Positions 9,008-37,684 of a stretch of DNA of 64,000 bases are shown piece by piece. Within the stretch, counting starts at the first letter, position 1, and each line of letters starts with the position of its first letter. The translations under genes were made by a program, and so were the position numbers. Under the pieces are notes generated by a model. It was not told the origin of the DNA, made no database searches, and saw only the letters and a program-made list of their open reading frames with translations. The DNA comes from Octopus vulgaris (taxonomy: Eukaryota), in NCBI GenBank assembly GCA_951406725.2, contig OX597817.1, positions 138,198,001-138,262,000 of the forward strand, read 5' to 3'.

Positions 9008-9780
9008 CTGTAATACCGCACCATATTGCGGTTCATCTACCGCGGTTCACCTATCGCGGTTCACCTATCACGGTTTGCCTATCACGGTTTATTATGTAGT
9101 GACGCCATTTTAGAAGTTTTCAGCGCGCATGCGCAGAGTTGGATTCTTCCGGCAGGCCTGCCGGAAGCTCCCTCATGCACATGCTCTCTCAAATGCTGAC
9201 AGCCTAGCAGGAAGGACGTGTTTTAACAGCTCTCCCAAGTTGCCACCTCGTGGCGTTGCTACACAGTGCTTGAACGGACAGGATTTGGCTCACTCCATTT
9301 GACTACTGCGAGAGGTCCTAGGCAACCGATTCGCCCTGAAGAATAATGTATATATTGCGAATCCAGAACTAAAATATTTATGCTGTTGAAGATATTCGGA
9401 AGTCTTGGCTTTTCCTTCGATTAATAATTTAATGTAAAGGATGAGAGCTGCACCCCTCCAGTGTTACAGACCTTTCGTCCCGTTACAATTATTTAAGCTC
9501 ACGTCGATTCCTCCGTGCTGTTGTTTTGCATTTATAATAAAATAAATATATACAAATTATTAAAATGATATAAAAAAATATACTGTACTGTTTCTACTTT
9601 ACAATTATTTAAGCTCACGTCGATTCCTCCGTGCTGTTGTTTTGCATTTATAATAAAATAAATATATACAAATTATTAAAATGATATAAAAAAATATACT
9701 GTACTGTTTCTACTTCACAGATTTTCACGTGGCGCGAGTGGTTTTGGAACGTAACGCTCGCGATAGTCGAGGGATTTCTG
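9008..9780. mobile_element. Tigger/pogo-like (Tc1/mariner superfamily) non-autonomous element
   Basis: Flanked by TA. Degenerate TIRs ctgtaataccgcaccatattgcg / cgcgatagtcgagggatttctg, subterminal cctatcgcggttca repeats, and an internal exact 116-bp tandem duplication (9483-9598, 9599-9714). Confidence 0.7.
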
Positions 9781-29113: not shown

Positions 29114-31324
29114 TTACATTGATAGGGTTTTTCTAAGGATGTGGGCAGTACTTGTTAGCACAATCTTTTGGATTTCCTTGAGACATGGTTCTCCAGGGAT
29201 ATTGTCTAGGTGTTTCTGACATCCCTTTTTTATCATACCTAGGGCACCTACAATAACAGGAACAGTTTTTGTTTTAAGATTCCACATCTTTTGTATTTCG
29301 ATTTCCAGGTCCTTATATTTACTAAGTTTGTCAAATCCCTTTACAGATACATTTTTATCAGTGGGGACGCTTACCTCTATTAGTCTGCAGGTATTTTCTT
29401 CCCTGTCTTTAACAATTATGTCTGGTCGATTAGCCTTGATCGTTCTGTCAGTGTTGACTGGAAAATCCCAGAGGATGGTAACATCTTTACCTTCAACAAC
29501 TGGCTGAGGATGGTGTTCATACCAGTTAGCAGGAGTGTCGGATTTGTAGTGTTTACATATCTTCCAATGTATATACTGTACTGCCCTATCGTGTCGATTT
29601 TTGTATTCGTTTGGTGTCAGCACAGGACATCCCGAAACGAGATGGTCTATCGTTTCGTCAAATGTGTCGCAGAATCTGCATTTAGGGTCAGTACCGTTTC
29701 GGAGAACGTTAGCCTGGTAATTTCTGGTAAAGAAGCTTTGATCTTGTGCTGCCATTATGAAGCCTTCAGTCTCTGCTTTAAATCCAGAACTCTTCAGCCA
29801 CTGATGGGTTGTTGCTTGGTCTACATCAGCATTTTGGCTTCGGAGAATATGTTGTCCATGCAGGGGCTTCTGGCTCCACCGCTTCTCAATTTGATTCTGC
29901 CCGTTCTTTTTTGCAGTCTGCTTGATTCGCTTTGCTTGCTTGGTAGCAGTGGTTTCCGGCTCTTCATCTGATTCAAGGTTAATGTCTAGTTCCCTTTCGA
30001 ACTTATAGGCTTCCTTGACAATAGAATGCAGCTTTTTGCTGCTTTCGTGTTCGCACACAAGTCGCAGCATCCAGTCCTTTGTACTAGATAGGTACCTGTT
30101 TATTCCTACAGTAGAGGTCTTATAGCACAGCTCTAATTGCATCATTCCTCTCCCCCCGTTGCTTCTAGTTAGGTACAGGCGGTCTACATCTGCCTTAGGG
30201 TGGTGCATGCTCTTGGATGTCAGTAATTTTCTTGTCTTCCTGTCCAAGCGTTGGAGTTCCGTAAGGTTCCAGTTAATGATGTTAAAACTGTACTGGACTA
30301 CTGGAAGCGCCAGGGTGTTAATGGCCTCAATGCAATTTTTGGAGTTGAGTTCAGTCTTCAGTACAAGCCTTATTCTCCTATAGTATTCCTTTCTTATTTT
30401 TTCCTTCATAGTAGCATGATGTATACCATCTCCTTCGTTGATTCCTAGGTATTTGTAACTTTCTTGTGGGTCAAGTTCCTTGATGGTAGTGTCAATATCT
30501 AATTTAACAGAAGCTGTTTGCCTGAGCTTGCCTCTTACAAAAGTTGCTTTAGCACACTTATCAAGGCCAAAATCCATTCCGATATCATTGCTAAACTCTT
30601 TAACAGTTGTTAGCAGCCCTTCTAGCTCTTGGTCATTCCTGGCAAACAGCTTTAGGTCGTCCATATAGAAAAGGTGGTTTATTAACTTACTAAAAACTTT
30701 GTACCCATATCTGGTACTAACCAATTCGTTTGAGAGTGGGATCAGTGCCATGCAAAAAAGTAATGGAGAGAGGGAGTCACCTCGAAAGATGCCTCGTTTG
30801 ATGTTGATGCTGTTGGACTGGCTCATCCCATTACTATGGCTTAGAAAGAGACGTGTGTTCCACATGGTCATGCTATTCTCTAAGAATTTTGAGACGACAG
30901 GAGAGATCTTGTATATCTCAAGGGCCTTGAGTATCCATTTATGTGGGACACTGTCATACGCTTTCCTGTAGTCTATCCATGCCATACTCAGGTTTTTGTT
31001 TTTGCTCCGGCAATTCTCTACAATCATTCTGTTTATGAGCAATTGGTCTTTGCACCCATAAGAGTTTCTTTTACAACCTTTTTGAGCTTGTGGAAGGATA
31101 GAGTTTTGTTCAAGGAAAGCGTACATTCTCTCCGTTATTATGGATGTGAGGATTTTGTAGGTGGTGTTGAGACATGTTATTGGCTGGTAATTCTTTGGGT
31201 TTTTTGTGTCTTCGGTTTTAGGTAATAGGTAGGTGGTTCCTTCAGTCAGCCAAGCAGGTATTTGCTCTGGGTTCTGAATGACATCAGACAGAGATGCAGC
31301 GAGATTTTCGTGTACCTCTGTCAA
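29114..31324 (-). CDS. Reverse transcriptase / restriction-like endonuclease ORF (736 aa open, frameshifted upstream)
   Basis: YQPITCLNTTYKIL, IDYRKAYDSV, GIFRGDSLSP, HLFYMDDLK, YKYLG, CRFC..HLVSGC, RHD, RPDIIV..IEVSVP, KY. Confidence 0.92.
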   Translation of the reverse strand: MTEVHENLAASLSDVIQNPEQIPAWLTEGTTYLLPKTEDTKNPKNYQPITCLNTTYKILTSIITERMYAFLEQNSILPQAQKGCKRNSYGCKDQLLINRMIVENCRSKNKNLSMAWIDYRKAYDSVPHKWILKALEIYKISPVVSKFLENSMTMWNTRLFLSHSNGMSQSNSINIKRGIFRGDSLSPLLFCMALIPLSNELVSTRYGYKVFSKLINHLFYMDDLKLFARNDQELEGLLTTVKEFSNDIGMDFGLDKCAKATFVRGKLRQTASVKLDIDTTIKELDPQESYKYLGINEGDGIHHATMKEKIRKEYYRRIRLVLKTELNSKNCIEAINTLALPVVQYSFNIINWNLTELQRLDRKTRKLLTSKSMHHPKADVDRLYLTRSNGGRGMMQLELCYKTSTVGINRYLSSTKDWMLRLVCEHESSKKLHSIVKEAYKFERELDINLESDEEPETTATKQAKRIKQTAKKNGQNQIEKRWSQKPLHGQHILRSQNADVDQATTHQWLKSSGFKAETEGFIMAAQDQSFFTRNYQANVLRNGTDPKCRFCDTFDETIDHLVSGCPVLTPNEYKNRHDRAVQYIHWKICKHYKSDTPANWYEHHPQPVVEGKDVTILWDFPVNTDRTIKANRPDIIVKDREENTCRLIEVSVPTDKNVSVKGFDKLSKYKDLEIEIQKMWNLKTKTVPVIVGALGMIKKGCQKHLDNIPGEPCLKEIQKIVLTSTAHILRKTLSM

Positions 31325-31413
31325 ACAATTCAGCCAGAAGTTAGGGATCCGATCCAGTCCTGGGGTTTTCCATTTATGAGCCTTCCTAAGGACACACCTT
31401 AGCTCCTCTATTC

Positions 31414-31870
31414 CTATTGCTTCCCATTTCTGTTCTTCAAGTTCATCTCACGTTCTATCCAGTCAGCCTCAGCATTAAACTCTTTTTCGTTGCTCCATAC
31501 CTTCTTCCAGAACTCCTCCACTTCCTCAATCTTAGGTGGATCTTCTATGTGTATTTTATTTTTGCCAATTTCCCTATAAAATTTCTTTGCATCTGTCTTA
31601 AAAAATTTATTTTGTCGATAAAATTTGTTTCTTTTGTCATACCTTCTAAGCCGTTGGGCTTTCAACTGTATCCGTTGTTTCAACAGTTCCTTAGTTGCAG
31701 GGAGGTTTATGAGATCTTTGATTTTATATTTTTGCTTGATTTTTCTAACTTTTCTCGACTTAATATTCACTCCTCTAGCAAGCTCATCGAGAACTGAAAC
31801 ATCCGCCCGCAGAGATTCAATCTCTTTTTGTATCGCTACTTTCCACTTAGGAGGTTCATTGACATGCCTG
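31414..31870 (-). pseudogene. Upstream part of the same ORF, separated by a frameshift near 31440
   Basis: PPKWKVAIQKEIESLRAD..QRLRRYDKRNKFYRQNKFF..EEFWKKVW; a shifted frame continues KWKTPGLDRIPNFWL into the RT ORF. Confidence 0.85.
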
Positions 31871-35005: not shown

Positions 35006-35436
35006 AAGGCGGCAAGCTGGCAGAAACGTTTATCACGCCGGGCGAAATGCTTAGCGGTATTTCGTCTGATGCTACGTTCTGAGTTCAAATTCCGCCGAGG
35101 TCGTCTTTGCCTTTCATCCTTTCAGGGTCGATTAAATAAGTACCAGTTACGCACTGGGGTCGATATAGTCGACTTAATCTATTTGTCTGTCCTTGTTTGT
35201 CCTCTTGTGTGTAGTCCCTTGTGGGCAGTAAAGAAATAAGAACCATATTGCATATTGTCTGTGTTTGTCCCGCCACCATCGCTTTACAACCGATGTTGGT
35301 ATGTCTACTCCCCCTAACTTAGCGGTTCGGCAAAAGAGACCGATAGAATATGTAATAGGCTTACGAAGAATAAGTCCTGGGGTTGATTCGTTCGATTGAA
35401 GACATTGAACCAGCATGGCCGTAGTCAAATGACTGA

Positions 35437-35440
<4 letters not shown>
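35006..35440 (+). mobile_element. SINE family A copy followed by family B 3' half
   Basis: Matches both family consensuses seen elsewhere in the window. Confidence 0.85.
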
Positions 35441-35531
<91 letters not shown>

Positions 35532-35543
35532 GCATGGATAGGT

Positions 35544-35634
35544 TTTTAGTACAATCGTTTCATACAAGGACAGGCTTTATTAAAAGTTGCAAAAATTACA
35601 GCATATAAACGTGTCCCGTACTCATCAGCTAAAA
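35544..35634 (-). ncRNA. Type-I hammerhead ribozyme (mirror copy)
   Basis: Reverse complement of 36720-36810. Confidence 0.8.
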
Positions 35635-36719
35635 TACATGTGAGTTCTCTAGACATCCTAGTGGTTGAGGCTATACTCATGAAGTAATGTAGATAATTAA
35701 GTAACATAAACAGATTTCCAAAGTTCATTAAAGTTCATTAAAGATGATGTACAGTCTTATCACAGAATTTTAAAAAATTTATACCTAGATTTTCCTAATG
35801 TGTTTTCTGGTGATTTTAGCATCTGACCCCTAAACCCCTGACTGTGTTATCTCTTTAGATTCTCTTTAAATTCATAGCTGATTTCAACAGCAATAAATTA
35901 GCTGTTTTACTGGTCAAAGAATAATATTCTCCTCTAGTTCCTAGATGCCTGTAAATTAAAACCAGACTTGCCGTCTACTAATTCTTCTGTATAACTAGAA
36001 CCGTTTTTTTACTTTTTCTTTTTTCCCTTCTTTCCCTATATCTTTCTCTTTTCTCTTTTTTCTTTTCCTTCTGCTTATTCTCTTTTTCCCTTTCTCTTCT
36101 CTTTTAGTCCCCCCCCCCTTTTTTGCTCCCTCCTCCTTTATTTTCTCTCTTCTCTTCTATTCCCTTCCCTTTTCTATTCTTTGCCGCTCTAGAAAGCCCT
36201 TCAGCCTTTAGAAGTTAAATAGCTACAGCCTCTTGTAAATAGCAGTAATGTGATTAATGTGGCAAATACCTAATCATATAACAAGAATTGATACCTACCT
36301 CATTGTGTTCAACCATTGATAAACTTATCGCCTGTGAATTTGAAATTCCTCTTCATTTCTCTGGAAATTTACATCTACACCATTGGAAATTGTGCATCTA
36401 TACAAAGGATTAATTCACCCTCTCTATAATGCTAATAAGCAGGAATTGAAACCCACCTCGTTGTATTTAACAATGGATAAATTTGTCTTCTGTGAGTATG
36501 TAATCCCTCATCATATCTCTGGAATTTCATATGTGCACTGTGGATTAGGTCACCTTCTCTGTGATGCTATTAAAACTTTTTTAAAATTCTGTGATAAGAC
36601 TGTACATCATCTTTAATGAACTTTAATGAACTTTGGAAATCTGTTTATGTTACTTAATTATCTACATTACTTCATGAGTATAGCCTCAACCACTAGGATG
36701 TCTAGAGAACTCACATGTA

Positions 36720-36810
36720 TTTTAGCTGATGAGTACGGGACACGTTTATATGCTGTAATTTTTGCAACTTTTAATAAAGCCTGTCCTTGTATGAAACGAT
36801 TGTACTAAAA
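36720..36810 (+). ncRNA. Type-I hammerhead ribozyme, intact core
   Basis: Stem I ttttag/ctaaaa, CTGATGA 36726-36732, stem II gtacgggaca/tgtccttgtat, GAAA 36793-36796, stem III AC-gatt-GT, cleavage after GTA (36804). Confidence 0.85.
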
Positions 36811-37179
36811 ACCTATCCATTCTTGTTGCTTCTTTCTCGCTTATAATCACCCCACATTACTGTATTGTTAAATCAGTATAGTTTTTTTTTGGTGCATCTA
36901 AGTTAGGTACCATATTCAAGTTAATTCATTTAAATTAACTTGAATCTTTATTGCTTTTTGTATATATATATATATATATACTATTTGTTTCAGTCATTAG
37001 ACTGCAGGCCATATTTTATACGAACGAATCGACCCCACAACTTTTTAAAGCCTGGTACTTGTACGATCGGTTGCCTTTGCCGAACCGCTAAGTTATGGGG
37101 ACGTAAACAAACCACAACCGGTTGTCCAGTGGTGATGGTGGTGGTAGTGGTGGTGGTGGTGGTGGTGGTGGGGTCGATG

Positions 37180-37214
<35 letters not shown>

Positions 37215-37684
37215 GTATGTTTCTATATTACTCACAAGGGGCTAAACACAGAGGGGACAAACAAGGACGACAAACGAATTAAGTCGATTACATCGACCCC
37301 AGTGCATAACTGATACTTAATTTTCTCGACCCCGAAAGGATGAAAGGCAAAGTCGACCTCGGCAGAGGACACCTGCCCAAGATGCCACGCAGTAGGACCG
37401 AACCCGTTAGGAAGCAAGCTTCTCACCGCACAACCATTCCTCTACCTAATGTGCTTTATACATTTAGTAAAGCAAAACCTTTAGATGAATTGGATTTCAC
37501 AGGGGGTTGAGATTTCTTACTTCAGGGCTTTGCTGAAACGGTTTGACAAACTGCCGAAGGCGGGAGATGACGTCCCTTGTCAACGCAGTTTGGCCAATGA
37601 ATATAGAAATGAACACTTACGTCTTTGAATGTGTGTGCATGTTTCTGAATATCTGTTTGTATACATGCGTGTGTATGTGTATTC

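Follow-up and report, generated by a model that had tools for sequence, protein, structure and literature searches.

The closest described systems are Penelope-like elements (PLEs) of other animals. In PMC8557442 an inverted 5'-truncated copy is located at the 5' end of such elements, giving rise to flanking inverted repeats, with a tail of 30–40 bp at one end, and its supplement contains Penelope-13_HM, with such a copy, a hammerhead on each strand, and a preference for (TA)n. Dual minimal hammerheads on opposite strands, about 100–700 bp apart, and variants with a small palindromic helix III have been reported (PMC4209133). For an element of the anole, internal RT initiation downstream of the hammerhead (in vitro), cutting of AT-rich DNA and a protein-assisted ribozyme have been described (PMC11167929). 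The cleavage reported for PLE hammerheads is weak and takes place in dimers or with the assistance of a protein (PMC11167929; PMC4209133). Retrozymes, on the other hand, are tandem repeats (PMC7229834; bioRxiv 2026.07.22.740005). In the genome of Octopus vulgaris 190 PLE families constitute 6.83% of the sequence, and 31 of them have been recently active (PMC13282606).

Here we consider one locus in a 64-kb window (the whole stretch of DNA analyzed, 64,000 nt), with its features listed in Table 1. The locus is best read as a (TA)n tract, an inverted 244-nt 3' piece, a 5'-truncated forward copy of about 1.18 kb, and again (TA)n. With a probability of about 0.8, we ascribe it to one insertion of a PLE derivative, whose forward copy (35778–36960) stands head to head with the inverted piece. 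Among the features of PLEs present here are a type I hammerhead close to the unit's 3' end and (TA)n on both sides with no discernible target duplication. The layout itself is already published for PLEs of other animals.

The locus resembles the endonuclease-bearing (EN+) PLEs of Craig et al. (2021; PMC8557442, Fig. 2; Penelope-13_HM, Hydra clade) in having the inverted truncated copy at the 5' end. As in Penelope-13_HM, hammerheads are found on both strands near the 3' ends, with (TA)n as the target; the extension present at one end only may correspond to the tail of EN+ PLEs. Unlike the PLEs of that study, it has no ORF in the visible 1.2 kb; moreover, domain II of its hammerhead is 60 nt long compared to loops of 3–10 nt on short stems in the tabulated Hydra-clade elements, and its one-sided extension is 140 nt instead of the published 30–40 nt. 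The Hydra-1_oBim hammerhead differs from that of the locus in sequence, and four words of 12–13 nt from the element or its variant are missing from the supplement of PMC8557442. The dual minimal hammerheads of PMC4209133 share with the locus the full core, the short palindromic helix III and the placement of two motifs on opposite strands, whereas in the locus domain II is much longer, position 11.1 is U instead of C (a G–U closing pair), and the cores are about 1.1 kb apart as opposed to about 100–700 bp. Similar to Poseidon PAc of the green anole (Frangieh et al., 2024; PMC11167929), several 3' ends are observed shortly downstream of the hammerhead and the target is AT-rich, but the PAc ORF begins at stem II, whereas the AUG overlapping the hammerhead core of the locus opens just nine codons. 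With non-LTR retrozymes (PMC7229834; bioRxiv 2026.07.22.740005) the locus shares a non-coding repeat, a type I hammerhead and a likely PLE origin; these, however, are head-to-tail tandems of 150–450 bp, and the locus is a head-to-head unit of at least 1.2 kb. What sets the locus apart from the cases compared is the length of domain II (60 nt) and of the one-sided extension (140 nt). No publication on the element family was found in a literature search of openly accessible papers.

Table 1. Features of the locus (positions in the window; strand given where defined)
Feature	Positions	Strand	Basis
(TA)n tract, left flank; likely insertion target	35442–35530		TRF, 44.5 copies
Three bases (CGC) separating the (TA)n tract from the left arm	35531–35533		Sequence
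Left arm: 244 nt from the family 3' region, inverted and 5'-truncated	35534–35777	-	Exact inverted identity to 36577–36820; rare base shared at the mirror of 36617
Hammerhead motif type I, mirror copy	35544–35634	-	Motif scan
High-copy repeat family: main copy, forward and 5'-truncated	35778–36960	+	30/30 bins in X1, X3, X5; X1 loose ends; X4 contig
Candidate decayed C-terminal end of a GIY-YIG endonuclease	35820–36000	+	By-eye translation comparison, several frameshifts needed
Polypyrimidine tract, 94% C+T, with AG beyond it at 36191–36192; possibly an intron 3' end	36005–36180	+	Composition
Internal direct repeat, period 158	36271–36538	+	Units 36282–36380 and 36440–36538 differ at 23 of 99 nt; coding signal absent
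Right arm: portion of the main copy duplicated in inverted form	36577–36820	+	Inverted identity
Hammerhead motif type I, 60-nt domain II, palindromic stem III	36720–36810	+	Motif scan, folding; predicted cut after 36804
3' extension, right end only; belongs to the family, other copies end at 36845	36821–36960	+	Public-run contigs
(TA)n tract, right flank	36961–36980		TRF, 10 copies

The two arms are identical at 244 of 244 positions, and each carries a complete core motif, as the earlier note had claimed. The identity ends immediately beyond 35534 and 36820 with no outward extension (the repeat search of the window scored the inverted repeat as 250 nt at 99%). The divergence of the arms is at most 1.2% (95% bound), and the interior between them is 799 nt long. 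The left arm terminates 16 nt beyond the predicted cut and adjoins (TA)n nearly directly. The only direct repeat flanking the locus is (TA)n itself, and none of at least 4 nt flanks 35534–36820; no direct-repeat pseudo-LTR is seen in the locus copy upon repeat comparison within the window, and blastn yields no second copy of the element there. The description of the 800-bp interior as pyrimidine-rich applies to 36005–36180, while elsewhere the content is 54–59%, and 64% over the whole interior.

Several smaller features were noted in and around the arms. The inverted arm ends at a T6–A4 run (36577–36586). Since the two strand-switch-like joints listed for X5 have the same end point, breakage may be favored at this site. 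TRF reports a 10-bp tandem duplication within both arms (36611–36634). The main copy also contains, 15 nt short of its 3' end, a small AT-rich hairpin (36914–36945; 88% inverted match) with a possible role in priming or recognition.

The window as a whole is animal-like DNA, rich in microsatellites and in one abundant short repeat, which we take to resemble an octopus SINE. The element is situated between two copies of this repeat (35091–35464 and 36961–37366), lying tail to tail through (TA)n and about 70% alike; many further copies are scattered across the window, often in partial tandems. Identical AT-rich 54-mers are also observed at 9530–9583 and 9646–9699, 116 nt apart.

The coordinates of the motif on the plus strand confirm all the elements proposed for it, that is, the core, a 6-bp stem I, a stem II of about 60 nt and a 2-bp near-palindromic stem III. 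Stem I is formed by 36720–36725 and 36805–36810; CUGAUGA (36726–36732) is followed by domain II (36733–36792) and GAAA (36793–36796); in stem III, A36796 pairs with U36803 and C36797 with G36802, and GUA occupies 36802–36804. CUGANGA, GAAA and NUH with helices I–III are found in both motifs. Scanning for type I motifs gave two matches in the window, both in the arms, compared to one match in all in 40 shuffled windows. The hammerhead fold has an energy of –10.5 kcal/mol versus –12.5 kcal/mol for the free minimum (z = 0.26). The stem III 8-mer ACGAUUGU is self-complementary over all eight positions (–5.8 kcal/mol), and the assignment to the type whose stem III is short and palindromic, presumed to be active as a dimer, agrees with PMC4209133. 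No hammerhead family of Rfam is matched at the gathering threshold over the window, nor at E ≤ 10 over 35400–37000; the 60-nt domain II is a likely cause of this, as far as can be judged from the sequence.

Variants of the motif among the family copies were taken from 40 of the 48 rows of the variant table. Seven of them fall within 36720–36810, and none affects the 27 positions, out of 91, that belong to the core, stem I or stem III (P = 0.08). This pattern fits selection on the ribozyme core, although it is not significant. Through G36798A stem III becomes fully palindromic; predicted pairs are preserved by C36786U and U36756C, and two further motif variants are unpaired, while the remaining two of the seven, A36742U and A36750C, disrupt predicted pairs of domain II, so that the variants lend no support to a conserved distal domain II. 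Separately, record 24 of X4 (36720–36916), which deviates over 194 nt by 13 letters and five gap letters, represents a second subfamily haplotype; its changes, ten of the 13 being itemized, leave the ribozyme core and stem I intact (P = 0.16).

Words of 35778–36950 are shared, at a fraction of 0.41–0.64, by 20 of the 24 public sequencing runs listed (10 studies, 4 organism labels), none of the listed runs being recorded as RNA. Four of these 20 runs (X1, X3, X4, X5) were aligned to 35738–36958. X1, X3 and X5 provide 1173, 2077 and 926 contigs, respectively, each run covering 30 of 30 bins; X4 (one study, whose RNA nature is a guess) provides 14 contigs in 20 of 30 bins, with cover missing over 35738–36147. 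The summed depth, which is not a copy number, ranges from 3e3 to 8e5 outside two polypyrimidine bins and, together with so many variant contigs, indicates a high-copy repeat. The depth peaks at 36722–36844 and is lower upstream, as would be expected from 5' truncation. Loose ends at 36623–36659 in X3, X4 and X5 belong to other subfamilies with different sequence there. Pattern scans of metagenome contigs gave zero matches in both cases; a scan of viral contigs yielded 88 loci, with none resembling the element and none passing the stem I or PLE-motif filter.

The same contigs define the limits of the unit. In X1, X3 and X5 the cover extends over the 138 bases 3' of the right arm just as over other parts of the unit, and one X4 contig spans 36714–36958 with two differences and one gap. 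Four X1 contigs bear different letters upstream of 35779, so the family continues where the locus copy is cut off, and eight X5 contigs depart at 36845 into (TA)n. Three 3' end points are thus observed, 16, 41 and 156 nt beyond the predicted cut, with 25 nt between 36820 and 36845. As the family runs 140 nt past the right arm as well as upstream of the interior, the left arm represents a truncated fragment of this unit in inverted orientation, and the previous delimitation of the element by its two arms is not supported. Two single X5 contigs join 35777 to 36542 and to 36823 (sides of less than 30 letters), and in a single X4 contig the loose end at 36526 is a palindrome; both observations are weak indications of head-to-head joins at other loci.

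In the six frames of 35778–36960 we observe 21–32 stops each, most of them unaffected by the listed variants, and no open stretch could exceed 90 codons. The listed indels are minor forms, except for one at 12/16 in a low-depth polypyrimidine cell of X5. Pfam matches none of the three read-through frames, seven ORFs show no relevant family (PLE RT, endonuclease), and homologue searches of the element for these two proteins are blank. The suggestion that the interior lacks an RT is therefore borne out by ORF, Pfam and stop-codon analysis. Since most copies lack coding capacity over the visible 1.2 kb, either the family is non-autonomous, to which we assign marginally better than an even chance, or an ORF lies further upstream; as no ORF was found, the element is assigned as PLE-derived rather than as an autonomous PLE.

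A candidate protein remnant is located at 35820–36000, where the translations resemble, by eye, the Penelope/Poseidon GIY-YIG rows of Fig. S2 in PMC8557442. This alignment requires two or three frameshifts and about five extra residues, and the conserved N is missing. Pfam gives no match for the remnant, and a word-indexed search returned 12 candidates, none of which scored. A phmmer search against 1.84 billion proteins produced four weak matches (E 3e-7 to 3e-5) whose match to a frame is unrelated to the proposed remnant; when these four were compared with the element by tblastn, two aligned at E ≥ 0.008 and the other two not at all. From the sequence, we consider the chances that this region is the end of a Penelope/Poseidon GIY-YIG domain to be somewhat short of even. 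The polypyrimidine tract followed by AG is only suggestive of a retained intron. A coding origin of the 158-bp repeat was rejected, with differences distributed as 6/9/8 by codon position (P = 0.56) and blank homologue searches, and a third unit of this repeat is not above shuffles.

No autonomous PLE partner was found in the window with Pfam on 18 plus 149 other ORFs (the latter out of 264 candidates). The sole Pfam match among these 167 ORFs is a 777-codon open frame at 29114–31447 on the minus strand (RVT_1, E 1.2e-27). We assume, from its C-terminal zinc-knuckle and restriction-like endonuclease motifs, that it is a 5'-truncated R4/Dong-type LINE, and it was accordingly rejected as the PLE partner.

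Both arms have T at 36617 and its mirror, where A constitutes 96–100% of the depth in all four runs, and hence the arms come from one template or have been homogenized. The interior differs from the dominant family type at ten near-fixed positions, or 11 with 36450 (67% in X1). Had these changes followed the insertion, six or seven differences between the arms would be expected; none is observed (P about 0.001–0.002), and so the interior changes predate the insertion, or the host differs from the runs, or conversion has acted. The insertion is likely recent, judging from the sequence. The age previously proposed from arm identity, very recent, is plausible with a divergence of at most 1.2%, but gene conversion or consensus polishing would look alike.

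These observations also bear on other explanations of the locus. A retrozyme-like non-autonomous RNA element may have been inserted once, with the left arm being a later inverted duplication at the DNA level or owing its identity to gene conversion. We regard this as unlikely, even though a type I hammerhead inside a non-coding, high-copy unit is what such an element would have, a PLE origin of retrozymes is argued in bioRxiv 2026.07.22.740005, and the contrast between the interior and the arms could mean conversion. The same contrast may simply reflect interior differences that antedate the insertion; the tandem hammerhead repeats of 150–450 bp are not seen in the window, the unit is at least 1.2 kb long, and the end of the left arm, 16 nt past the cut and against (TA)n, looks like an insertion end.

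An even smaller chance is given to an artefact of assembly or library preparation, that is, a collapsed or folded-back high-copy repeat. The perfect identity of the arms and the abundance of the family are compatible with it, PLE-type insertions are known to trouble assemblies (PMC8557442), and the 35777/35778 junction is bridged by no contig among the 32 of 4226 pieces listed. The duplication is limited, however, to the sequence of the element and has asymmetric ends, its flanks are different copies of another repeat, the rare base is common to both arms, and the head-to-head joins in other runs, weak as these single contigs are, also speak against it. Highly improbable, and largely refuted, is a MITE or foldback DNA transposon whose terminal inverted repeats of 244 bp carry the hammerhead by chance: it would account for identical inverted arms, a non-coding interior and TA-rich flanks, but the sequence of the family goes on past the right arm by 140 nt and also upstream of 35779, copies elsewhere stop at 36845, and no direct repeat of at least 4 nt flanks 35534–36820.

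The preferred reading, one head-to-head insertion of a PLE derivative, suggests the following scenario. AT-rich DNA would be nicked by an RT/GIY-YIG protein supplied in trans by an autonomous PLE from another genomic site. By analogy with the anole element, reverse transcription would be primed inside the RNA, shortly 3' of the hammerhead, and a second priming event or template switch on the same template could yield the forward and the inverted copies. The hammerhead would be present twice because it lies near the 3' end and is retained by every truncated copy. Alone it would probably cleave poorly, depending on either a second copy in trans or the PLE protein.

In the predicted fold of a read-through RNA all 244 arm positions are paired, in line with the long dsRNA anticipated in the earlier note. 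The energy of this duplex is –420 kcal/mol compared to –10.5 kcal/mol for the ribozyme fold, and the ribozyme is predicted to be buried in the 244-bp duplex, which would block its cleavage. It had also been proposed that transcription of either strand meets a sense ribozyme; the geometry is right, but such a ribozyme would be paired to its exact complement. With the two motifs on opposite strands, dimerization in cis, within one RNA, is impossible, and in this model a free ribozyme would be expected only in RNA initiating inside the interior.

A broader proposition, which we advance tentatively and consider doubtful as a whole, is that the locus belongs to a non-autonomous, PLE-derived family of very high copy number that has so far escaped description (SINE-like in behavior, with a unit of at least 1.2 kb), present in several related species and recently mobile, whose hammerhead with a 60-nt domain II has been overlooked by standard models, and whose head-to-head insertions may produce perfect long RNA hairpins that silence their own ribozyme and possibly feed dsRNA pathways (editing, small RNAs). 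The locus itself, which is probably young, cleanly exemplifies an insertion pattern already in the literature, and the family offers thousands of natural variants of a long-domain-II hammerhead overlooked by Rfam. Its discrete 3' end points could be used to test internal RT initiation downstream of the ribozyme in an invertebrate family. The finding would carry more weight if the family is non-autonomous and still moving, or if the inverted copies truly yield dsRNA.
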